DNA of 64,000 bases from Dethiobacteria bacterium. Lineage in GTDB: Bacteria; Bacillota; Dethiobacteria; DTU022; UBA8154. Positions 1 through 15,559 of this stretch are shown here, piece after piece. The stretch covers positions 7,313 to 71,312 of the forward strand of contig JBMNEM010000006.1 in assembly GCA_050948785.1 (NCBI GenBank), in the 5' to 3' direction. The notes beneath the pieces were generated by a model. The model saw nothing but the letters and a program-made list of their open reading frames with translations, was not told the DNA's origin and searched no databases. The first letter of the stretch is position 1. Every line of letters starts with the position of its first letter. A program made the position numbers and the translations under genes.

Positions 1-909
1 GTTATCATAAAGCTTGGCCGGACACAAAACCAAGACATTGTCTTCCCGAAGTTCAAAGTATTTAATCACGGCCAGAGCTTCGAAGGTTTTTCCCAGACCA
101 ACACTATCGGCAATAATACACCCGTTATATTTGTTAATTTTCTGGATAGCGGAAACCGCCGCATCTTTTTGGAACTCATACAGGCTGTTCCAGATCACCG
201 ATTTTTTAAAACCTGTTCGATCCTTTTCAAAACGCTCTACACCGCTATCAAGCTGGCCGCCGAAAAGCTCCTTCAATGTAAAGTAATACAAAAATTCAGG
301 GGAATAATCCTTGTAAACATAATTGAGGCTTTCCAGCAACACTCCTTTGTAGTCTTCGGTATAATCATTATTGCTCCAGATAATCTGAAAGAGCCTTTTA
401 AAGTGCTCCATCTGGGCTTGATCATTAACGATAGAGTTGAAATGAATCGGTGCAAGTTCACCGCGTTTTGTCCTTCCGGATACTTCAAGGGAGGAGGTGC
501 CGTGTATGGCTACTTCGTCATCAATCATGATAATATTGCCCGTAACTTTACCTGGCAATTTAACTTTTCTGACATTGACATGACTTTTAATAAAATCATG
601 CATGGACTTTGCTTTGGAAAAATGTATAAGTTTGTTTTTTTGAATGATATCATAGGAGTTGAAAAAGAGATCGCTGGTATTTTGACTGATTTCAAATTCA
701 CGGGGCAACTCACGTCCTGATGGCACATAAGCAGTATTACGGATTATAAAGTTGATTTGATCTACATTCTGCAGGTTTTTGGAAAGTTCCCCGAACACGG
801 ATAAAGTCAACTTATCGTTGATAATATTAATGCTCCTGCTGTTCTTGGCCTGGAGAACTTCATTGATTTTTAAGATAAGCTGGTCGTTGGAGCTAATGAC
901 CTCATGCAT
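1..909 (-). CDS. SNF2-family (RapA/HepA-like) helicase, N-terminal 303 codons; continues beyond window start; N-terminal region with degenerate PLD/HKD-like motif
   Basis: Minus-strand ATG at 907-909 preceded by GGAGGT; uninterrupted frame to position 1 (absent from the ORF track because no stop lies in the window). Translation contains ...KINKYNGCIIADSVGLGKTFEALAVIKYFELREDNVLVLCPAKL = helicase motif I of SNF2 type (xADxVGLGKT). Upstream 'GNIIMIDDEVAIHGTSSL' resembles the end of a PLD HKD motif but lacks the H and K. Confidence 0.6.
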   Translation of the reverse strand, partial: MHEVISSNDQLILKINEVLQAKNSRSINIINDKLTLSVFGELSKNLQNVDQINFIIRNTAYVPSGRELPREFEISQNTSDLFFNSYDIIQKNKLIHFSKAKSMHDFIKSHVNVRKVKLPGKVTGNIIMIDDEVAIHGTSSLEVSGRTKRGELAPIHFNSIVNDQAQMEHFKRLFQIIWSNNDYTEDYKGVLLESLNYVYKDYSPEFLYYFTLKELFGGQLDSGVERFEKDRTGFKKSVIWNSLYEFQKDAAVSAIQKINKYNGCIIADSVGLGKTFEALAVIKYFELREDNVLVLCPAKLYDN

Positions 910-1005
910 ATTTGCTGTACCTCCTAATCCCCACCCTTATCTTTCCATATCTTCAAAGCAATTCCAACCTCCGCTTTCCCACAGTGTTATAATCTTTTTT
1001 ATCGT

Positions 1006-1647: not shown

Positions 1648-2942
1648 TTATATTTCCCCAAAGATAAGGTGCTCCATGATCAATACCGCTAAAACTCCTA
1701 CCACAAACCCGTTGCCGAGAAGGGGCCTTAAAATAACTGGAAACGTGTTCAAGACACTATCTGGCAGGAAAGAGATGATGATGCTCAGCATGAGGGGAAG
1801 CCCGATCACCAGGCCATTTTCAAAATGAAAACCCTTTTGAGCATCAAGGACCATGGTTAACCCCGCGGCAATCTGTGAACACATGATGTAGAGAAAAACG
1901 CCGCCCACTACTACCGGCGGAATACCGCCAATAAAGGCAATTACCGGCGGCAGAAACGACACGGCCAGTACAGAATCAGGCCGGCAGGTATAAGGGTAAA
2001 GCGTGAGGCGCAGCCTGTCGAGGCAATTACGCCGGGGCTCAGGGAAAAATTGACCGGGCCAATCACACCCCCAAGACCCGCCAGAAAATTAAGTATGCCT
2101 GTCAGTGAAAGCCCCCTGGTAACCCGTTCCGGCATACGCTCCGGTTTCAGCAAGCCACCCACGGAGTAGATCGAACCCAGATCATTGATGGCCAAAGCCA
2201 AAAAACAGACAAGAAAAGAAATAATGACTCCCGGTTCAAAACTCAGGTTGAAATTCGTTTTGAACAAAAAGTCAGCAGTAAATTTATCCTGAACGGCCGG
2301 TGCGCTTTCCAAACCCTGGGGAAAAACCAGGTAATAAACAACTGTCCCGGCAATCAGTGCCCACATAATCAAGGTGGATTTCCAAAAACCGTCAACATGC
2401 CTGCTCACCGCAAAGATACAGAGTACAAAAACCAGAACAAAGCACAAATTTGCCCAGGCAAGTTCAGGGACAGCAGAGGATGTGCTCAGATTTAAAATCA
2501 TGGGCGTAAGGGTAAAAGCAATCATGATCAGAATGGTGGCCACAACCGGTGGTGTAAAAAGTTTTTTGAGATGGTTGAATAATCCCGCAGCACTCAGCAG
2601 AAAAAGAACAAGGCCCCCTAAAGCCATAGCTGTATAGATAGCGCTGATCCCGCTCCCCCGGCTGGCAGCGATCCCCACAAGGAGTATTGTGGCCGGGCCC
2701 ACTACAAGCGGCAGCTGGTGGCCCCATAACAACTGAACCAAAAGAGAAGCCCCTACTACAAAAAACACTTTTTGAATATAGGTAATCTGCTCTACAAATT
2801 CACTAAAATGCAAACCGGCCACTATATTCCCCACAATCACAACAATCGGAACCATAATTGCCAACCACTGCAAACCCAGGAATATCAGTTCAGCAAGGGG
2901 TGGCATCTCATCAAGCCCGTATTTAAACTTTACCCGATCCAT
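1648..2942 (-). pseudogene. NCS2-family nucleobase (xanthine/uracil) permease, interrupted by a frameshift near 1963-1980
   Basis: ORFs 1941..2942 (333 aa) and 1648..1962 (104 aa) are consecutive parts of one ~430-aa NCS2 permease ('...GVIASTGCASRFTLIPAGLIL' then 'LAVSFLPPVIAFIGGIPPVVVGGVFL...') in frames offset by 1 nt. Either an authentic frameshift or a sequencing error. Confidence 0.6.
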
Positions 2943-3150: not shown

Positions 3151-3180
3151 GCTGCCAGGTCTGATCTATAATTATAGAAC
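3151..3180 (+). promoter_or_regulatory. dinB promoter: -10 TATAAT (3157-3162) overlapped by Cheo/LexA box AGAACATCAGTTCT (3166-3179)
   Basis: GAAC-N4-GTTC inverted repeat matching the Gram-positive LexA consensus CGAACNNNNGTTCG, immediately downstream of a TATAAT hexamer, ~30 nt upstream of the Y-family polymerase start. Confidence 0.5.
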
Positions 3181-3205
3181 ATCAGTTCTGTAAGGGTGCT
3201 GGTTT

Positions 3206-4447
3206 ATGCTTGAATCAAAAGTAATCATGCTTGCGGATATGGAATCCTTTTATGCCAGTGTCGAAGTCGCCAAGAACCCTGCTTTACGTGGAAAGCCTGT
3301 GGCGGTTTGCGGAGATCCGCAAAAACGGCGGGGCATTGTTTTGGCTGCAACCAAAGAAGCCAAGGCTTACGGCATTAAAACGGGCATGGCGGCGTGGGAA
3401 TGTGCAAGTTTATGTCCACAGGTAGTCCTAGTCAGGCCCCACATGCAGGATTACATCGATGCATCGTTAAAAATTACGGATGTCCTGGCCAGGTTTACCG
3501 ATCGGGTCTCCCCCTACTCTATTGACGAGCAGTTCCTCGATATGACGGGATGTGAAAGACTTTTTGGCCCTCCGGAAGAAATGGCCAGGCTAATGATCAA
3601 AAAGGTATGGAAAGAAATCGGTATTAAGTGCCGTGTGGGGATCGGGGAAAACCCCCTGCAGGCCAAGATGGCGTGTGACCGGTTTGCCAAAAAAAACAAA
3701 GCAGGCTTTTTCAGATTATCTCATCAGAATTATGCGCAGCATACCTGGCCCCTGCCGATCAGAGATCTATTCGGTGTGGGTGCCCGTATGGAGCGTAATT
3801 TTTTTAATATTGGCGTGCGGACAATCGGACATCTGGCACAGCTGCCGAAAGAAGACCTGAAATTCAGGTGGGGTGTAAATGGGGAGGTTTTATGGCTTAA
3901 TGCGCAGGGGATTGATTATTCGACGATAAAACCACTGGAAAGTGTAAAAGATACCCGCAAAGGAACCAGCCACTCCATAACCTTACCCCGGGATTACCGG
4001 TCTAAAAAGGAAATAGAAGTTGTTTTATTGGAGATCGTGGAAGAGGTCTGCCGGCGGGCCAGGTCCTGGGGTAAGGTGGGGCGGGTTGTCCATGTCTACT
4101 GCCGGGGCGCCGACTTTGATTTCCCCACGGGCTTTTCCAGACAGGTGAAAATGTCCGAACCGACAGCGATGACCATGGATGTCTATGCCTACGTCTTAAA
4201 GCTGTTTTATACTCATTGGGACCGGCGGCCGGTCAGGGCCCTGGGTGTCGGCCTTGCAGGTCTTTTGGATTTGCGGGAAATACAGCTCTCCCTGGTTGAT
4301 CCGAAAGAGAAAAAAATGGCCTTGAGTAAGGCCATGGACTCTATCAGGAACCGCTACGGCCCGACAAGCCTGTTTAGATCGTCCTCGCTGACAGCAGGCG
4401 GGATGCTTTTTGACCGGGCGACCAAAATCGGCGGGCACGAGGCCTAG
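3206..4447 (+). CDS. dinB: Y-family DNA polymerase IV (DinB-like, translesion synthesis)
   Basis: 413 aa; N-terminal 'IMLADMESFYASVE' catalytic motif of Y-family polymerases, typical palm/finger/little-finger length. Confidence 0.85.
   Translation: MLESKVIMLADMESFYASVEVAKNPALRGKPVAVCGDPQKRRGIVLAATKEAKAYGIKTGMAAWECASLCPQVVLVRPHMQDYIDASLKITDVLARFTDRVSPYSIDEQFLDMTGCERLFGPPEEMARLMIKKVWKEIGIKCRVGIGENPLQAKMACDRFAKKNKAGFFRLSHQNYAQHTWPLPIRDLFGVGARMERNFFNIGVRTIGHLAQLPKEDLKFRWGVNGEVLWLNAQGIDYSTIKPLESVKDTRKGTSHSITLPRDYRSKKEIEVVLLEIVEEVCRRARSWGKVGRVVHVYCRGADFDFPTGFSRQVKMSEPTAMTMDVYAYVLKLFYTHWDRRPVRALGVGLAGLLDLREIQLSLVDPKEKKMALSKAMDSIRNRYGPTSLFRSSSLTAGGMLFDRATKIGGHEA
4109..4291. repeat. Direct repeat copy 1 (internal to dinB) of ~183-bp segment duplicated at 8360..8542
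   Basis: About 92% nucleotide identity by eye to 8360..8542 (encodes ADFDFPTGF..MSEPTAMTMDVYAYVLKLFYTHWDRRPVRALG.GLAGLLDLREIQLSLVD in both copies). Confidence 0.8.
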
Positions 4448-4536
4448 GTTGTTCAATACCTTTTTCAGTTTTATAAACAATTCGCCAGGGCGGGCTGATT
4501 GATACCCTGTAGGTAAGCTTCTCCGGTAGGCTCAAT

Positions 4537-5286
4537 CTATTGTTTTTTTCTGTGGTGATGCCAGGTATCCAGGAGAGAATGAGGTACTTCGAGGCCATTC
4601 CTTTCCATCAGACTGTCATTACCCATCACTACGGCCGGCTCTCCATCAGCCTGGATCCGGCCACCTCTCAGCAGCAGGACGCGGCTGCAGGTTTCCAGAA
4701 TAAATTCCAGGTCGTGTGAAGCGATAAGTACAGTTTTATCCGTCATCGTATCAAGGAGCTGAATCAGGCGGCGGCGGTAGCGCAGATCAAGGTCGGAAGT
4801 AGGTTCATCCATGATCAACAGCCTAGGGGCCATAGCCAGGATACCGGAAAGAGCCACAAGGCGCTGTTCCCCACCGGAAAGATGGTGTGGAGGCCGGTCC
4901 AGCAAGGCCGTGATCCCGGTCAATGCGGCCGTTTCCTCTATTCTCTTCCGGATCTCCTCACTTCCCAAACCCATGTTTTGCGGACCGAAAGCAATATCAT
5001 CCCTGACCGAAGGGCAGATCAACTGATCCGCGGTATGCTGAAAAACCATACCCACCGCTGGATAAAAAACGCCAGGCTTAACCGGTTGGCCGAATATCTC
5101 CAGCCGACCGGATGTCGGCTGCAGGATCCCGGTAATTAAAAGAAAGAGGGTGGTTTTGCCGGCGCCATTGGGACCAATCAGCCCTACCTTTTCACCGGCT
5201 TTAATCGTACAATTGATCCCTGCAATAATCGGTAGCTGTTCGGGGTAGGCAAAATGCAGCGCCTTTATGCTCAAAGCTTCTGTCAA
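4537..5286 (-). CDS. ECF-type Ni/Co transporter ATPase component (CbiO/NikO-like)
   Basis: 249 aa ABC ATPase: Walker A 'GPNGAGKTT', signature 'LSGGEQ', Walker B 'LIMDEPTSDLD'; downstream of Q and M components. Confidence 0.8.
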   Translation of the reverse strand: MTEALSIKALHFAYPEQLPIIAGINCTIKAGEKVGLIGPNGAGKTTLFLLITGILQPTSGRLEIFGQPVKPGVFYPAVGMVFQHTADQLICPSVRDDIAFGPQNMGLGSEEIRKRIEETAALTGITALLDRPPHHLSGGEQRLVALSGILAMAPRLLIMDEPTSDLDLRYRRRLIQLLDTMTDKTVLIASHDLEFILETCSRVLLLRGGRIQADGEPAVVMGNDSLMERNGLEVPHSLLDTWHHHRKKQ

Positions 5287-5401
5287 AGTTGGTTTCCTCC
5301 AGGTTTATTCTTGTAGCTTTGCTTCCCTTATCTACGATTATAGCAGAATTCCCTGCCAGTGCGCAGTTATTATCCGGATTTTTTAATTGACAACAGCATT
5401 T

Positions 5402-6160
5402 TTAGAGGAAGGCTTGAGACAGAATGATGGCTGCAGCAAGTAGCAGCACAACCGCCAACAGCAGGTAATCCGCGACAGCGGGCCGGAAATCTGAAAGCGG
5501 TTGATCACCATTACCGTAACCGCGTAGCGTCATCGCCTGGAAAACCCTTTCCGCCTGTTTATTGCTGCGAACCAGCAACGAACCGGTAATATTGGCAAAG
5601 GTCTTCAATGAAAACAGTGATTTGCCCTGAAAACCACGCAGGCAGGCCGCCGCGTGCGTGCGCTTCAAATCGCCGCTCAGTTGAAAAAGGTAACGGTAGG
5701 TAAATAGCAGCAAATCAGTCATCAGCCAGGGAATGCCAAACGCTCGCATCGTCCTGGTCAGCAGGGGCAGTGGGGTTGTGGCAAAAAGAACCACAACCAC
5801 CATGAAGATAGCCGTAAACTTGGCGGCTACCAGCAGCAGACTGAGGCAACCTTCCAACCGCAAAGCAAGTGGCCCGAATTGCCAAAGCACAGTCTGCCCC
5901 GACCAAAACGGCAGTATAACAGCCATGGCCACCAGAAAAAACCCGGGCAGGCGCAGCCGCGAAACAAAATAAGCAAATGGCAGCGCCGAGAACCGGTAGA
6001 TGATCATGGCGCTTAAAAACATCAGTGGTAAAATGCGCAAATCCTGCACCAAGGCAAAGGAGAAAACAAGCATGATTAAACCCGGCAGCTTGAAGCGAGT
6101 TTCCCAGCGGCCGAACAAACTACTTAGCACTGTAGAACCAACTACCGCTTCGCTGATCAT
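5402..6160 (-). CDS. ECF transporter transmembrane (T) component CbiQ/NikQ-like
   Basis: 252-aa polytopic membrane protein with CbiQ-like profile; 4-nt overlap with upstream M component. Confidence 0.7.
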   Translation of the reverse strand: MISEAVVGSTVLSSLFGRWETRFKLPGLIMLVFSFALVQDLRILPLMFLSAMIIYRFSALPFAYFVSRLRLPGFFLVAMAVILPFWSGQTVLWQFGPLALRLEGCLSLLLVAAKFTAIFMVVVVLFATTPLPLLTRTMRAFGIPWLMTDLLLFTYRYLFQLSGDLKRTHAAACLRGFQGKSLFSLKTFANITGSLLVRSNKQAERVFQAMTLRGYGNGDQPLSDFRPAVADYLLLAVVLLLAAAIILSQAFL

Positions 6161-6813
6161 TTCGGATCAACCTCCAAGAGAGCAGGCTGCACGCGCAGCA
6201 GGAACAACACAACCATGGCCGTGAATACGCCTTCCAGTAAAGCTACCGGCAGGTGAGCCAGGCTTAAGGTCAGCACAGCAGCTTTTTCAGCGGCGGCATC
6301 AAAAGAGGCCGAGGCCGGGGCGACATAAATCAGCAGCAACGCCGCGATCATGGCCCCTGCAACGACGGCCGTAAAGGAGGCCAGGAAAGCCAGCAGCCCG
6401 TTGGGCAGAGGCTTTTGCAAACCAAAGAAACGGCGCAGGCTGAAAAGACGGTGCGCCAGCAAGGCCGGCAGACCCATCAGGCAGGCGTTCACGCCAAGGG
6501 TGGTCAGACCACCGTGCTGAAACATGATCGCCTGCAGCAGCAGGCCCACCAGGACAGCAGGGAATGCAAACCAGCCGAGCATAACACCCATAAGGCCGGA
6601 GAGAACCAGGTGCACACTGACTGGCGGCACCGGAATATGAATCAGCGATGCAACAAAAAAAGCTGCAGTCAGCAGGGCTGCCTTGGGAATAACGTTTCGC
6701 GGATTACCATACTGCTTCTTGATCTTGTGCAGTGATAGCCAGGTCATACCGCCCGTCACCGCATAACCGCCGACAGCGGCGGAAACCGATATAATCCCGT
6801 CCGGAATATGCAT
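6157..6813 (-). CDS. Ni/Co ECF transporter substrate-capture component CbiM/NikM-like
   Basis: Starts 'MHIPDG', the conserved N-terminus of CbiM/NikM; 218 aa multi-TM. Confidence 0.75.
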   Translation of the reverse strand: MHIPDGIISVSAAVGGYAVTGGMTWLSLHKIKKQYGNPRNVIPKAALLTAAFFVASLIHIPVPPVSVHLVLSGLMGVMLGWFAFPAVLVGLLLQAIMFQHGGLTTLGVNACLMGLPALLAHRLFSLRRFFGLQKPLPNGLLAFLASFTAVVAGAMIAALLLIYVAPASASFDAAAEKAAVLTLSLAHLPVALLEGVFTAMVVLFLLRVQPALLEVDPK

Positions 6814-7284
6814 TTAGCTTTGCCTCCTACTGAAGTATAGTGCAGTACCGAACAGCCCCCAAATCACCGCAGCGATCATCAGGAACTTCTGCGGTCCGGT
6901 AAACCCGGTAGTGCTGGCAGGGCTGACAGCACTTTCGTCAACCTCGATCCTGATCAGCCCGCCGTGACCGGCGAGACGTGCTTGCACTTCCCACAACCCG
7001 GGTATTTCCGAGTCAGGAACAAAGAAAAATTTACCGTCCTCGTCACAGGTGCCGGTAAGCCAGGGTTCAGCCGGACTGCCGGGCGCAAATACAGCTACTT
7101 GAGCCCCTGCCATCGGACCCCCAGTATCATAACAGGCGGTAACCTCGATAGCGTTGCTCTCTATATATTCAAGCTCAACCCCGTGGGCCAGCGCCTCGCC
7201 TGCCGGAAAAATAATCAGCAGGCAGATTGAAACAACCACTGCAACCAGGCAGGCATAACCGGCAGACCGGCTTTTCCCAAACAT
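6814..7284 (-). CDS. Bitopic membrane protein with extracytoplasmic domain (possible NikL-like accessory component)
   Basis: 156 aa: N-terminal TM/signal, ~100-aa external domain starting 'AHGVELEY', C-terminal TM; tightly linked (stop adjacent to start of the M component). Confidence 0.35.
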   Translation of the reverse strand: MFGKSRSAGYACLVAVVVSICLLIIFPAGEALAHGVELEYIESNAIEVTACYDTGGPMAGAQVAVFAPGSPAEPWLTGTCDEDGKFFFVPDSEIPGLWEVQARLAGHGGLIRIEVDESAVSPASTTGFTGPQKFLMIAAVIWGLFGTALYFSRRQS

Positions 7285-7301
7285 GCTTAAAACCCCCTTG
7301 G

Positions 7302-8146
7302 TTAGTTAATAAATTCTGCCAGACAGTGACCTTCGCCGACATGGGCCAGGTGAGTCAGAATAGGAACCAACAGTTCATAATCATCAGCGCTGAGGTTTTC
7401 CTCGAGGAAAGCCAGATCGACTTCCACGACACCATCTACAGCCAAGGCCGCCAGCGGTTCAAAACCGAGCGCCCCCTGGTTCAGGGGATCATCCGGATCT
7501 TCTTCCCCGTAACCAAAAAGATGGTCAAAGTGGAAGGTCATTTCAAGATCGGCAGTTCCGCCAGGAGTTACTACCCCCTTGCGTTCGTCACCTATGTAAT
7601 CACCGCCTTGATAGGCAACCTCCTGCTCGATACCGAAGGTAAAATCAATCACTGTTCCATCTTTTTCAGCCTGCCCGGCTAAAAACAGACTGTACCCGGC
7701 GGACGGTCCTTCAACAGCCCGGAGCATTTCCCAGGAAATAGCATTATAATGCCCGGTCGGCACTTCCGCCAACTCATCAAGCACTACGGGATCACTTGCC
7801 GGGTCGGCCAAGTTTACTGAGTGTATACCGGACGGTTCGACTTTTTCCTGGTAGTCGATATCCCAGCCCTGTTCGGTATCATAGGGCGGATCGGTCTGGT
7901 ATGCCGTAATGTTGCCCATGGTAGCGTAGGCCCGATCAAAGGAAAGCTCCCAGCCATCCTTGGAAAGGAACCCCTCACGGATAAACTCTTCCCCGTTCGC
8001 TGTAAAGGCAAGTGTTCCTGTTTCTACGGTATCTCCTGTTATAACATCACCTTGGGGCGCCGCTTCCTCACCACCACATCCACCAAGAAACAAAAAAGGC
8101 ACCATCAGCAACACAACAATGACGACTAATCCATTTTTTTTCATTG
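7302..8146 (-). CDS. Lipoprotein, possible periplasmic NikK-like component of the Ni/Co transporter
   Basis: Probable start is the second ATG (MKKNG..., RBS GGAGGT 7 nt upstream); signal peptide plus lipobox 'FLGGC'; first gene of the operon. Confidence 0.35.
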
Positions 8147-8277
8147 CCTGACCTCCAGTATTTTGCATAACCGGCGGATATGGCCAAACTTCAGGCCAAA
8201 ACTAACCCCTCCACCTTGTCGTGCTACAAAATTAATATTTATGTTATGTATTTCGCTATTACTTTTTATTTTCCTGC

Positions 8278-8601
8278 TTGGCACATAAAAAAACCGGCAA
8301 AGGATACCTTTTACCGGCAGCAATCTGCTGTGGAGACAGTCCCTGTGACACCTCCTGGGGCGCTGACTTTGATTTCCCCACGGGCTTTTACAAGCAGGTG
8401 AGAATGTCCGAACCGACAGCGATGACCATGGATGTCTATGCCTACGTCTTAAAGCTGTTTTATACTCATTGGGATCGACGGCCGGTCAGGGCCTTGGGTG
8501 CCGGCCTGGCGGGTCTTCTGGATCTGCGGGAAATACAGCTCTCCCTGGTCGATACTCAATCTTTTTTAGTTTTGGGGGTAGAGGCATATCATGCGGGGTG
8601 A
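8278..8601 (+). pseudogene. dinB gene fragment (61-codon internal segment of the Y-family polymerase) with unrelated flanking codons
   Basis: 107-aa ORF whose middle is near-identical to DinB residues ~302-362 (copy 2 of the 183-bp repeat); no polymerase N-terminal domain. Confidence 0.7.
8360..8542. repeat. Direct repeat copy 2 of dinB internal segment
   Basis: See 4109..4291; same orientation; 4.07 kb between copies, containing the dinB 3' end and the whole Ni/Co transporter operon. Confidence 0.8.
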
Positions 8602-8648
8602 CGGAATCCTAATCGTCAGGTATCCGTCAAGGATGAGGTAACCGGGTC

Positions 8649-9470
8649 TCAACCAGTAGGTGTGGCACCCGGTCGATAGGCCACTGTTATTCTGTGGCAG
8701 CTGTTATTTGCAGCTGTTTTCCAATCAAACCAACCGTAGCTTTGAATTTTTATAAAACCCAACTCCGTCAGCCATAAATCCAATTCTTTTTTTAAAATCG
8801 GGCGAACGGGGATTCTGACTTCTTCCTGGCAAACACGAATACCGGCCCTGATACCAGCAGGAGCAATCTTAAAAATCAGCTTCGCCTTTTCCCCTTCCTT
8901 CTCACGCTTTAACCACAGCTTTACCTTCAAACCCAAGGTATTGTCTTTCCAAAACAGGTATAAGACACACATTCCGTTGTAACAGATAGTCATAATTAAG
9001 GGTATGAATAATCAGGATTCCGCCTGGTTCAAGCTTTAAATACATTTGGGCCAATGTTCCCCAGATATCTTCTTCACTTAAGAGGCAAGACAACGAATTC
9101 TGTAAGCAGACAATCAAGCCACACTGTTCCCTGTAAAGACTGGATATGTCACGCATATCCCCTAAACAAATCTCCAGCTGTACACCCGCCCGGACACTTT
9201 TATAATTTATTTCTTTGATGATCAGCGGCTCAGGGACAAAGACAGTGACACCTTTGCCCCATTGGGCCAATAAAACAGCCAGTTCGCCGCTTCCACAAAA
9301 CACATCGAGCACTTTCCGAATATCGTGACTTTCTAAAATATTTTTAAAAAACTTGGCTTGTTGTTCATCCAAGCCGAAAGCAAAGTCGCTGGCATTCCCG
9401 CACCATTTAGAATCCTTGTCAGGTAAACCCTTTTTACCATTAGAAGTGAGCATGCAAATCATCGCCCCCG
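8649..9470 (-). pseudogene. Class I SAM-dependent methyltransferase, apparently frameshifted between ~8902 and ~8993
   Basis: ORF 8902..9564 has motif I 'VLDVFCGSGELAVLLA' and 'LEPGGILIIH'; likely start ATG ~9470 after GGCGGGGGCG. Overlapping ORF 8649..8993 in another frame reads like a methyltransferase C-terminus. Confidence 0.5.
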
Positions 9471-9712
9471 CCTTCCGGCAGGTGACCATACTGCTGAAGA
9501 TACTGCTGGATAAGCTGATTTTCTCTCTGGATATATGGAAAATTTTTCTCATTCCCGGACTCAACAGACAACTTGATATCGATAATCATTATTTACTCCA
9601 TCTCCTCACCCCAATGGGCTAATTTCTTATTCCTCAAACAAAGAGACAGCCTTCATGAAACAGCAATGTGTAAGCGCTGGCCCGCATCATGGCCGTCTCA
9701 GGACTATTTTCC

Positions 9713-9994: not shown

Positions 9995-10245
9995 TTATTT
10001 TTTACCTCCATTGCCCTCTCGGAAAAAACCCGTAACATCCTGGCTTTTTCCCAGCCCACATCAGGCCTATTTTTTCCCAGCCGGCAATTGCCTGATACCG
10101 CCCACTTACTATTAAACAGGGATGCTGTTATAATTTTAATAAAATAAAGAAAAGAAAAAAATCGCTTAAAAGCATGGAAGCAAGTTTAAAAAAGAGTGAA
10201 TTAAGGGTTAACACTTTTGGATCAACCCAAAAACCAAACATATAA

Positions 10246-10274
10246 TTGACCAGAAAACAGATAAGATATATAAT
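10246..10274 (+). promoter_or_regulatory. Consensus sigma-A promoter (TTGACC-17-TATAAT) for the histidine kinase/response regulator operon
   Basis: TTGACC at 10246-10251, 17-nt spacer, TATAAT at 10269-10274; ~60 nt upstream of the kinase start. Confidence 0.55.
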
Positions 10275-10334
10275 TTTAATGAAGTGAAGCCTATTTAAAT
10301 TTTTGGAAAGAATATTAAAAGAATATTAAAGGGT

Positions 10335-12039: not shown

Positions 12040-12750
12040 ATGGTGACCATTAAACTTTTGATTGTAGACGACCACCCCATGGTTAGAGAAGGTTTGTCAG
12101 TTATGCTGGCCACCTGTGATGAAATCACTTTACTTGGTAGCTGCAGCAACAGTGAGGATGCTATAAAAGCAGCTATGGAAAAAGAGCCCGACATCATTCT
12201 CATGGATATCAAAATGGAAGGGAAAAGCGGGATCGAGACAACTAAAGAAATTTTAATCCTGAAGCCTCAGATTAAAGTCATTTTTTTAACTGTTTTTGAA
12301 GATACGGAATCAATTCGTCAGGCTTTACAATCTGGTGCTGCCGGTTATATCTTAAAGCATGTTTCCCGGGAAAAATTGATCGAAACCATAAAACGTGTCT
12401 TTAATGGAGAAACCGTCATCGACCAATCGATTTTTCATCAAATAGTGAACGATTATACCCGCTTGAGTAAAAAAGTTGCCGAAACAAGTGGATCCCTGAA
12501 ACAAGAAAAAATTGAGGATTTAACACCGCGTGAACAAGAAATCCTGCAGCATCTGGTTAAAGGGCTAACTAATAAAGAGATCTCTACAGCTACCAATCTG
12601 GCGGTGGATACTGTAAAAACTCATCTTCGCAATATTTTCCGCAAATTTGGTGTAAAAAATAGAACACAAGCCATTACCCAGGCAATGAAATTAAGTCGGA
12701 ACCCGGATAGTGTCCTTTTTTATGATCTCAGAACTATGGGGCGGGAGTAA
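12040..12750 (+). CDS. NarL/FixJ (LuxR-HTH) family response regulator
   Basis: 'LLIVDDHPMVREGL' receiver domain; C-terminal 'LTPREQEILQHLVKGLTNKEISTATNLAVDTVKTHLRNIFRKFGV' HTH. Confidence 0.85.
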   Translation: MVTIKLLIVDDHPMVREGLSVMLATCDEITLLGSCSNSEDAIKAAMEKEPDIILMDIKMEGKSGIETTKEILILKPQIKVIFLTVFEDTESIRQALQSGAAGYILKHVSREKLIETIKRVFNGETVIDQSIFHQIVNDYTRLSKKVAETSGSLKQEKIEDLTPREQEILQHLVKGLTNKEISTATNLAVDTVKTHLRNIFRKFGVKNRTQAITQAMKLSRNPDSVLFYDLRTMGRE

Positions 12751-12770
12751 TTTATTGTGGTTACTCCCAC

Positions 12771-12801
12771 CCTATCCACTCCCGGGTAGGCTTATTTTTT
12801 T
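12771..12801 (+). terminator. Intrinsic terminator after response regulator
   Basis: CCTATCC-ACTCCC-GGGTAGG hairpin followed by CTTATTTTTTT. Confidence 0.55.
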
Positions 12802-12802
12802 A

Positions 12803-12840
12803 AAATTAAAAAAGAACACCCTTGCAAGTGTTCTTTTGTG
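12803..12840 (-). terminator. Intrinsic terminator after tsf (bidirectional hairpin)
   Basis: AAGAACAC...GTGTTCTT 8-bp stem flanked by A-run on the plus strand and T-run on the minus strand. Confidence 0.55.
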
Positions 12841-12863
12841 ATGATTTATTTTTATCAGGAAGT

Positions 12864-15241: not shown

Positions 15242-15316
15242 TGGTGGGCGAACGGCGATTTGAACGCCGGACCCCCTGCTTGTAAGGCAGGTGCTCTCCC
15301 ACTGAGCTATTCGCCC
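15242..15316 (-). tRNA. tRNA-Val (anticodon UAC)
   Basis: Reverse complement GGGCGAATAGCTCAGTGGGAGAGCACCTGCCTTACAAGCAGGGGGTCCGGCGTTCAAATCGCCGTTCGCCCACCA: cloverleaf, anticodon loop CUUACAA, encoded CCA. Confidence 0.85.
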
Positions 15317-15321
15317 CTTGG

Positions 15322-15397
15322 TGGTGACCCCTAGGGGATTTGAACCCCTGCTGCCAGCTTGAAAGGCTGGTGTCCTCACCGATTAGACGAAGGGGCC
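15322..15397 (-). tRNA. tRNA-Glu (anticodon UUC)
   Basis: Reverse complement GGCCCCTTCGTCTAATCGGTGAGGACACCAGCCTTTCAAGCTGG...GGGGTCACCA; anticodon loop CUUUCAA. Confidence 0.8.
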
Positions 15398-15401
15398 AAG
15401 A

Positions 15402-15477
15402 TGGTGGGCCCACTAGGACTCGAACCTAGAACCAACCGGTTATGAGCCGGTAGCTCTGCCAATTGAGCTATGGGCCC
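15402..15477 (-). tRNA. tRNA-Met (anticodon CAU; elongator or lysidine-type Ile2, not initiator-like)
   Basis: Reverse complement GGGCCCATAGCTCAATTGGCAGAGCTACCGGCTCATAACCGGTTGGTTCTAGGTTCGAGTCCTAGTGGGCCCACCA; anticodon stem lacks the three G-C pairs of initiator tRNA. Confidence 0.75.
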
Positions 15478-15484
15478 ATAAAAA

Positions 15485-15559
15485 TGGCTCCCCAGGCAGG
15501 ATTCGAACCTGCAACCCACCGGTTAACAGCCGGTTGCTCTACCGTTGAGCTACTGAGGA
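15485..15559 (-). tRNA. tRNA-Asn (anticodon GUU)
   Basis: Reverse complement TCCTCAGTAGCTCAACGGTAGAGCAACCGGCTGTTAACCGGTGGGTTGCAGGTTCGAATCCTGCCTGGGGAGCCA. Confidence 0.85.

Follow-up and report, generated by a model that had tools for sequence, protein, structure and literature searches.

The window analysed here, a 64-kb stretch of DNA from a Dethiobacteria bacterium, carries an intact dinB gene and, some 4 kb downstream on the same strand, a short piece of dinB that is cut at both ends (R2). We consider it rather likely that R2 is the relic of an old illegitimate recombination event, probably of the one-sided-homology (HFIR) type, at a synteny breakpoint. The features of the locus, in order of position, are:

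3176-3189, plus strand: putative Cheo-type LexA box AGAACATCAGTTCT, 17 nt 5' of the dinB start
3206-4447, plus strand: intact dinB, DNA polymerase IV (Y-family), 413 aa, from Pfam and NCBIfam matches
4104-4300, plus strand: repeat copy R1, within dinB (codons ~300-365), C-terminal half of the little-finger domain
4537-8168, minus strand: five-gene Ni/Co ECF transporter cassette, from Pfam and NCBIfam matches
4537-5286, minus strand: cbiO, ABC_tran and ECF ATPase families
5402-6160, minus strand: cbiQ, TIGR02454 at 115 bits (cutoff 111.8)
6157-6813, minus strand: cbiM/nikM, CbiM NF004906 at 266 bits (cutoff 205)
6814-7284, minus strand: NikL-like gene, 156 aa, NF058648 at 1e-12, 48 bits against a cutoff of 100
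7302-8168 (likelier 7302-8144), minus strand: DUF4382/NikK-like lipoprotein gene, 288 aa, DUF4382 being NCBI's name for its homologues
8278-8601, plus strand: 107-aa ORF enclosing R2
8286-8318, minus strand: intrinsic-terminator-like hairpin with a T-run, from a terminator scan and also present in the MFE fold
8357-8553, plus strand: repeat copy R2, dinB relic cut at both ends
8649-9564, minus strand: class I SAM-dependent methyltransferase gene, first gene of the right-hand synteny block

The upstream gene encodes a DNA polymerase IV with catalytic (IMS), thumb and little-finger (IMS_C) domains. The Pfam domains IMS PF00817 (7e-47), IMS_HHH_1 PF21999 and IMS_C PF11799 (3e-23) were all matched, the gene being full length, and the product scored 563 bits against NCBIfam PRK03103/NF002848 (cutoff 381). 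Orthologues with 74-93% amino acid identity are found in Dethiobacteria/Bacillota MAGs and in metagenome contigs. The predicted box upstream of the gene has the form of the SOS (LexA) operator of Bacillota dinB genes; it is unique in the window (0.02 matches expected by chance), and the promoter region around it is kept in the relatives L001 and L024.

The alignment of R1 and R2 is gapless, spans 197 nt and contains 14 mismatches (92.9% identity, offset 4253); a repeat search extended the pair to 4099-4300 and 8352-8553 (202 nt, 92%). The direct repeat that the initial annotation had put at 183 bp is thus real and slightly longer. Self-BLASTN of the entire 64 kb, the check proposed at the time, recovered this pair (E 2e-79) as its sole significant repeat, so the match is not due to chance. 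A 72-nt stretch of R1 (4150-4221) matches R2 perfectly. The two copies had been read as encoding the same 61-aa stretch; they in fact encode 65 residues, 4 of which differ (S>Y, R>K, K>R, V>A; 94% identical). At the left joint (4099-4103 and 8352-8356), 3 of 5 bases match, which is ambiguous as microhomology.

R2 lies in a 480-nt spacer between the transporter cassette and the methyltransferase gene. It matches positions 52-109 only of Pfam IMS_C, with abrupt edges, and tblastn found only DinB residues 301-368 at this place. Flank alignment and self-BLASTN/tblastn detected no DinB similarity outside these edges, in keeping with the earlier description of an ORF whose flanking codons are not those of DinB. 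This ORF is probably not a gene because it begins with TTG, has no Shine-Dalgarno sequence and is flanked by codons unrelated to DinB. Neither a catalytic domain, nor a full little finger, nor a credible start or ribosome-binding site, as a functional dinB would have, was found in R2 or the ORF, and gene callers that report an 'IMS_C' protein of 107 aa at R2 yield a spurious product. The JGI annotation lists the ORF as a hypothetical protein (P0001). Present-day R2 is probably an inert scar without function.

R2 lies at the meeting point of two conserved gene orders. On the left, L001, L002 and L004 share the permease-dinB block as far as the dinB stop; the right block, rpsB-tsf-RR-HK-ferredoxin-methyltransferase, is common to L041-L046 and ends at the methyltransferase stop. 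Beyond permease-dinB the relatives that share it continue with other genes, and those that share the right block continue past it with adh_short-thiolase-...-HGD-POR; neither the cassette nor a piece of dinB stands at these places in any of them. A nik-type cassette 3' of dinB was absent from all six relatives with enough flank (L001, L002, L004, L005, L006, L008). No relative with dinB adjoining the cassette was found, several of the closest dinB contigs (L003, L007, L024, L026, L028) being too short to show it. Because no relative has dinB followed by the methyltransferase gene and each shared block continues differently, we read the locus as a junction of two synteny blocks, not as a simple cassette insertion.

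The DNA between R1 and R2 consists, as had been described, of the dinB 3' end (4301-4447) and the five minus-strand cassette genes. These genes are predicted to supply the M, Q and O components that form the core of a NikKMLQO-type Ni/Co ECF transporter. The cassette resembles the NikKMLQO/CbiMNQO transporters (Rodionov and colleagues; Zhang et al. 2009, PMC2667541) in these components, in lacking CbiN/NikN, and in the presence of two candidate accessory components, a small NikL-like membrane protein plus an upstream-encoded extracytoplasmic lipoprotein. It differs in that its gene order is K-L-M-Q-O and its NikL match falls below the NCBIfam cutoff; its Ni/Co specificity is putative. No Pfam or NCBIfam model matched the 288-aa NikK-like lipoprotein, CbiN was not found, and neither a B12 riboswitch nor any other Rfam element was found 5' of it. 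Across its clade the five-gene unit is kept at 72-78% amino acid identity, and its neighbours are unrelated from genome to genome. The hairpin at 8286-8318 stands between R2 and the cassette promoter region and may end transcripts from the methyltransferase gene. The window copy of that gene carries a frameshift; other contigs have it intact (270 aa).

We found no integrase or transposase among the Pfam/NCBIfam matches of the genes examined (1 to about 18.6 kb), as had been stated before, nor did any similarity to phages or plasmids turn up. Inverted repeats are limited to chance-like pairs of 20-26 nt (76-80% complementary), none of them at the edges. A transposon, IS or integrative element was rejected on these grounds, and a target-site duplication is excluded by the length of R1/R2, 197 nt at 93% identity.

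The 14 differences between R1 and R2 comprise 10 synonymous and 4 nonsynonymous changes (dS 0.245, dN 0.028, ratio 0.11). For the whole gene, the window dinB and that of the nearest other lineage (L024) gave a dS of 0.271, a dN of 0.034 and a ratio of 0.12. Over only 65 codons, the nonsynonymous share of 4/14 compares with ~75% expected under neutrality (P=3e-4) and ~63% expected if R2 alone had decayed neutrally (P about 0.01). A three-taxon comparison of R1, R2 and L024 was near-star, with 5, 9 and 10 private changes, respectively. The low dN/dS and the orthologue-level distance suggest that R2 derives from a second, once-functional and separately evolving dinB and not from a recent in-place duplication. 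Since this source would have diverged while still working, it was most likely a sister-lineage allele, at roughly the distance of the closest other species sampled.

The initial annotation had proposed that the cassette was acquired or rearranged by recombination involving a second, diverged dinB copy, or else by duplicative insertion, with the dinB 3' end regenerated in the process. The second copy is borne out by the selection signature and the distance, and the cassette is indeed absent 3' of dinB in relatives and free of mobility genes. On the other hand, no relative was found to have the expected empty site, in which the methyltransferase region would come straight after dinB, and duplicative insertion is disfavoured by a divergence that points to a heterologous donor or second diverged copy.

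HFIR-type replacement appears to be the most economical route to this arrangement. DNA from a related strain, with an intact dinB and then the transporter cassette, would have paired on the left with the recipient in or upstream of dinB, and on the right would have joined illegitimately inside the recipient's own dinB, at codon ~300. The resident dinB would thereby have lost its first 0.9 kb, its 3' part staying behind as a direct repeat. In a further step, earlier or later, a rearrangement or deletion would have trimmed the relic by its final 147 nt and brought its new end to a point 95 nt from the methyltransferase stop. The seam would then join (...permease-dinB) to (methyltransferase-ferredoxin-HK-RR-tsf-rpsB...), with the self-contained NikK/L-CbiMQO cassette also within. 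The locus has the predicted anatomy of an HFIR relic, namely an intact homologue upstream, a 5'-truncated remnant downstream on the same strand and homology on the anchor side only: left synteny is kept and right synteny is broken at the dinB stop. The order of events, the HFIR mechanism itself and the assignment of resident and incoming alleles are our inference. Against this route, the two edges of R2 need two separate events, and 14 differences are too few to tell which allele was resident.

There are precedents for displacement of the HFIR type in which the 3' remnants of genes are left orphaned downstream of an incoming module (PMC5361080; also PMC3240628). Known cases include orphan 3' ends and immunity genes at Vibrio T6SS and Rhs loci, and HFIR in Acinetobacter, Pseudomonas stutzeri, Streptococcus and E. 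coli (PMC5361080, PMC3240628). The present locus shares with them an intact incoming gene upstream, a 5'-truncated, diverged remnant downstream in direct orientation, one-sided homology and the lack of an integrase or transposase. It differs from them in that the gene is a housekeeping SOS polymerase and not a polymorphic toxin, that R2 is also 3'-truncated, that an unrelated transporter operon lies alongside, and that the mechanism is deduced, no donor configuration or intermediate having been found. R2 is also like the pseudogene fragments seen at synteny breakpoints, being a short, sharp-edged, non-coding piece in a spacer where two gene orders meet; unlike those, it has its intact homologue 4 kb away and forms with it a direct repeat with a perfect core.

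The locus belongs to ordinary genome history and is not a new type of element; it would not surprise a specialist and opens no long-standing question. It is a tidy, datable case of chromosome reshuffling, with no mobile-element genes involved, in an uncultured Dethiobacteria-like lineage: apparently a sister-lineage allele took the place of a housekeeping gene, a metal-uptake operon came along and a molecular scar remains.

R2 could instead descend from a resident paralogue, which we think improbable. The ancestor would have had two nearby working dinB genes; the cassette would have inserted in the 5' part of the second, and the 3' end of that gene would have been deleted. A long-lived paralogue gives an identical purifying-selection signature, which counts against the HFIR reading, and the direct orientation and closeness of the copies fit as well. 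Some Bacillota do have two loci of the subfamily, such as Alkalihalobacillus (L011 and L012). However, no second dinB or dinB fragment was present near dinB in the six relatives with 8-10 kb of flank, and the related MAGs had one dinB locus each in our scan. The between-species distance of R1 and R2 would, moreover, place the duplication before the split and demand its loss everywhere else.

Another reading, which we regard as quite unlikely, is that a foreign dinB fragment, acquired for example via transformation and unrelated to any displaced resident dinB, served to patch a double-strand break or a rearrangement joint. This single step would account for both edges of R2, for their sharpness and for a position exactly at the synteny seam. 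Yet it needs a coincidence, since the parent gene of the fragment lies 4 kb away on the same strand, and no further filler fragments were detected in the two spacers.

We see very little chance that R2 arose in place as a partial duplicate of dinB, whether through replication slippage, unequal crossing-over or duplicative insertion, and that this extra copy then decayed neutrally. The copies are direct, same-strand repeats within 4.3 kb and their identical core could be residual identity, but the nonsynonymous share is too low for neutral decay of R2, the divergence is that of orthologues, and the flanks of R2 are unrelated to those of R1 on both sides.

Similarly far-fetched is an exapted regulator, in which R2, as an antisense segment within the methyltransferase 3' UTR (stop 8649, terminator 8318-8286), would pair with dinB mRNA and modulate Pol IV. 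The predicted antisense is 93% complementary to this mRNA over 197 nt, perfect core included; the sole terminator-like hairpin 3' of the methyltransferase gene sits just past R2; and R2 is invariant across seven independent contigs. But the non-repeat DNA beside it is equally invariant (0.13-0.17% diversity, or ~2 differences expected in R2; P(0) about 0.13), that strand has no unusual fold (z -0.88) and no Rfam match, and the methyltransferase gene is frameshifted in the window. The bolder version, in which a trans-antisense RNA of pseudogene origin would tune the SOS mutator polymerase and gene conversion with the resident dinB would keep its core perfect, strikes us as more doubtful still.

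The arrangement is not peculiar to the window. Seven contigs (L021/L032, L022, L033-L037) span the methyltransferase-R2-nikK side and five more (L047-L051) run from cbiO through the dinB 3' end into R1, all with 97.8-100% identity to the window, and L022 and L034 cover the whole cassette. At least 13 independent metagenome contigs back the junctions. All conspecific contigs have the same arrangement, and it is fixed in the sampled population. A mis-join of two loci at a repeat was rejected as next to impossible: the 489-kb contig L021 stops inside the cassette and short-read contigs do break in or near the repeats, but each junction is bridged by independent contigs that come from different samples, and a repeat of 93% identity is too diverged for a chimeric join. 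Because short-read assemblies break at the dinB repeat, the species has no complete dinB on record, and the absence of excision or deletion variants from the conspecific contigs is a weak test. The direct repeats might, as the initial annotation suggested, let the cassette be excised or amplified, and the 72-nt core could occasionally allow RecA-dependent deletion of the 4.25-kb unit. Such a deletion, if it occurs, would take out the cassette and leave DinB with 15 unrelated residues in place of its final 48.

The initial annotation had reported that a segment of dinB is duplicated downstream, bracketing a transporter operon. Ungapped comparison confirmed the direct repeat: R1 (4104–4300), inside the intact dinB gene, and R2 (8357–8553) align over 197 nt without gaps, with 14 mismatches (92.9% identity, offset 4253 nt). 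The pair is the sole repeat that self-BLASTN finds in the whole window (E 2e-79), and a repeat search stretched it to 202 nt at 92%. Each copy encodes 65 residues, of which four differ. R2 corresponds to DinB residues ~300–365 only (IMS_C profile positions 52–109), and both of its edges are abrupt. A 72-nt run of perfect identity (4150–4221 in R1, 8403–8474 in R2) is mildly longer than 14 scattered mismatches predict (P ~0.02); gene conversion could explain it, but so could chance. The features between and around the copies are listed here.

Last 147 nt of dinB, plus strand: then an 89-nt spacer, then the minus-strand five-gene operon (the cassette)
CbiM/NikM, CbiQ and CbiO, minus strand: the remaining three genes of the operon
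156-aa NikL-like membrane protein, minus strand: listed second in the operon
7302–8168, minus strand: DUF4382-type lipoprotein in the NikK position, first gene of the operon
480-nt spacer holding R2: between the operon start and the stop codon (8649) of MT, a minus-strand class I methyltransferase gene
8318–8286, minus strand: terminator-like hairpin and T-run between R2 and the operon promoter region
107-aa ORF holding R2: TTG start, no Shine-Dalgarno sequence

Is the arrangement real? The MT-R2-NikK side or the cassette is spanned by seven metagenome contigs (L021/L032, L022, L033–L037) that are 97.8–99.9% identical to the window, and five further contigs (L047–L051) run from cbiO into the 3' end of dinB, two of the five ending within R1. 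One of these, the short-read contig L049, stops at 4192, within the 72-nt identical stretch. The R1-cassette-R2 arrangement is thus no artefact and is fixed in the sampled population. All seven contigs carry an identical R2, but this invariance weighs little: the adjoining spacer and the NikK-like gene hardly vary either (0.13–0.17% diversity, predicting ~2 differences in R2), a local background too low for population data to reveal selection on R2. Across strains, the cassette and R2 are almost invariant while MT and the sequence beyond it differ by 1.7–2.9%. The step is sharp: contig L035 has 2 SNPs in 7250–8647 versus 35 in 8648–9613, and L033 (5640–10729) also shows it. These patterns suggest that the cassette-R2 block spread recently by recombination or a sweep, with its edge at the MT stop.

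The host gene of R1 is intact. IMS, thumb and IMS_C domains are all present in its 413-aa product, whose NCBIfam score for DNA polymerase IV is above the cutoff. At 3176–3189, 17 nt upstream of dinB, is a perfect Cheo-type LexA box, AGAACATCAGTTCT, which occurs once in the 64 kb (0.02 expected by chance). The surrounding promoter region is kept in two loci from other genomes or metagenomes, L001 and L024. Together, the box and its conserved surroundings make SOS regulation of dinB probable in this clade. Exact-sequence look-up returned no record for the window's DinB or permease, and the TM2-gene contigs extend leftwards without reaching dinB.

The cassette resembles the NikK/L-type variant of Ni/Co ECF transporters, which lacks an N component (PMC2667541). 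We regard it as a putative Ni/Co transporter; the NikL match of the 156-aa protein falls under the curated cutoff. The NikK-position gene probably starts at 8144 rather than at the longest-ORF position 8168, because its homologues are 280 aa, the length given by the 8144 start; the ATG there is preceded by GGAGG. Searches for RNA elements upstream of the cassette and over R2 gave no riboswitch or other Rfam match. Similarity of the cassette DNA to the related cassettes L038–L040 is restricted to coding sequence (69–75% identity) and gives no sharper cassette boundaries. When both R2-flanking spacers and the spacer between dinB and cbiO were compared with the window and every retrieved locus, no match rose above chance level (13–17 nt).

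We wondered where R2 came from. Of the 14 differences between the copies, 10 are synonymous and 4 nonsynonymous (dS 0.245, dN 0.028, ratio 0.11), and neutral divergence is rejected (P=3e-4). A more lenient model of in-place duplication, with R1 constrained and R2 decaying freely, is also rejected (P ~0.01). The whole dinB gene compared with L024, the closest orthologue found (91.8% nt identity), gives the same values: dS 0.271, dN 0.034, ratio 0.12. The three-way comparison of R1, R2 and L024 is near-star, with 5, 9 and 10 private changes, respectively; the relatives that follow reach at most 85%. Because both the selection signature and the divergence equal the window-L024 values, we read R2 as a fragment of a second dinB that stayed functional while it diverged, most likely in a lineage about as distant as a sister species, and that was truncated late. 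R2 might instead be the remnant of a resident dinB paralogue, which would leave the same selection signature. However, each related MAG yielded a single dinB locus of this subfamily, which favours an allele of another lineage over a paralogue. L024 was the sole close orthologue from the metagenome DinB scan, on a 1.8-kb contig whose flanks match neither side of the window. A donor search of a large protein index with the R2 peptide recovered only the 107-aa ORF itself, the word index being too coarse for a 65-aa query.

We then compared gene order with relatives; the organism groups with Dethiobacteria/Bacillota MAGs. On the left, the permease-dinB adjacency is common to L001, L002 and L004, and similarity ends at the dinB stop codon. 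Downstream of dinB, L001 and L002 share one gene order, which includes a 429-aa gene and a TRAP transporter, and none of these genes is in the window. On the right, rpsB-tsf-RR-HK-ferredoxin-MT is common to L041–L046, and similarity ends at MT; the adh_short, thiolase, amidohydrolase, 2-hydroxyacyl-CoA dehydratase and POR genes beyond it are all missing from the window. The L001/L002 TRAP transporter would link the two blocks if it were the DctPQM set next to tsf in L041-type genomes, but at 40–49% identity the two are paralogues. Members of the same clade also have the five-gene cassette (72–78% identity for the NikK-position protein), as a constant unit with different neighbours each time; it is not exotic DNA, but it does relocate. 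In one relative, L039 (4029–8473), it is followed by pyrrolysine genes (PylD, radical-SAM PylB-like, PylC-like and a PylS-like tRNA synthetase). No relative examined has the cassette or a dinB fragment adjoining dinB or MT, and the 4.2 kb from the dinB stop to the MT stop is thus the seam between two synteny blocks. The predicted empty site, with dinB followed directly by MT, was absent from the genomes examined.

How might the seam have formed? Among the genes examined in the first ~18.6 kb we found no integrase or transposase; there is no meaningful inverted repeat, and searches for a plasmid or phage origin gave no relevant matches. The locus has an intact dinB upstream, a diverged homologue lacking its 5' part further downstream in the same orientation, and homology to relatives on the left side only. 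This anatomy is the outcome expected from homology-facilitated illegitimate recombination (HFIR), for which T6SS and Rhs loci, where displaced modules leave orphaned 3' remnants, offer a precedent (PMC5361080; PMC3240628). For both reasons we favour an HFIR-type replacement. Incoming DNA from a related strain, carrying dinB and a convergent transporter cassette, would have been anchored on its left side by homology, while an illegitimate joint fused it to the resident dinB at codon ~300. A further rearrangement would have trimmed the 3' end of the relic and abutted it to the MT block. We infer the order of events, their direction and the mechanism; neither the donor arrangement nor an intermediate was found among the relatives examined. 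The earlier interpretation is partly supported: a second diverged dinB copy and recombination are borne out, but duplicative insertion and a simple insertion site are not, and no excision was seen. The locus is a further instance of an already known type of genomic scar.

The relic is probably inert today. The repeats could support rare RecA-dependent deletion, which would remove the cassette and leave a DinB cut off at residue 365 with a tail of 15 unrelated residues (...LSLVDTQSFLVLGVEAYHAG); such a product makes a useful switch unlikely. No contig contained the deletion junction, a weak test because short-read assemblies break at the repeat. An unconventional and improbable reading is that read-through from MT would place an antisense-dinB sequence in its 3' UTR; the terminator position would fit, but R2 invariance is uninformative, the fold of minus-strand RNA over R2 is not exceptional and no Rfam family covers it.

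Other differences mark the neighbourhood. Between the histidine kinase and a 93-aa ferredoxin, L041–L045 carry two BcrAD/BadFG-type activase genes that are absent at window 9995–10334, and between tsf and the response regulator they carry a DctPQM TRAP transporter that is absent at 12750–12850; the neighbourhood has thus lost several gene sets. In the window, frameshifts interrupt both the xanthine/uracil-type permease (1648–2942, minus strand) and MT (8649–9564, minus strand), one in each gene. Other conspecific contigs are one base shorter at ~8932–8937, giving an intact 270-aa MT; L055 differs from the window permease by 2 nt at 1971–1973, and L021 has a private 1-nt deletion in cbiQ (5805). 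The permease, MT and cbiQ frameshifts have two candidate explanations, long-read indel errors and strain-specific pseudogenes. A four-tRNA array (15245–15559, minus strand), with no integrase nearby, lies between the rpsB side and rpoD-dnaG, ~7 kb from R2. At the left end, a partial SNF2/ResIII-like helicase gene (1–936, minus strand) runs off the window with a GC content of 38–41%, below its surroundings; it may belong to an accessory island, of a defence or another type.
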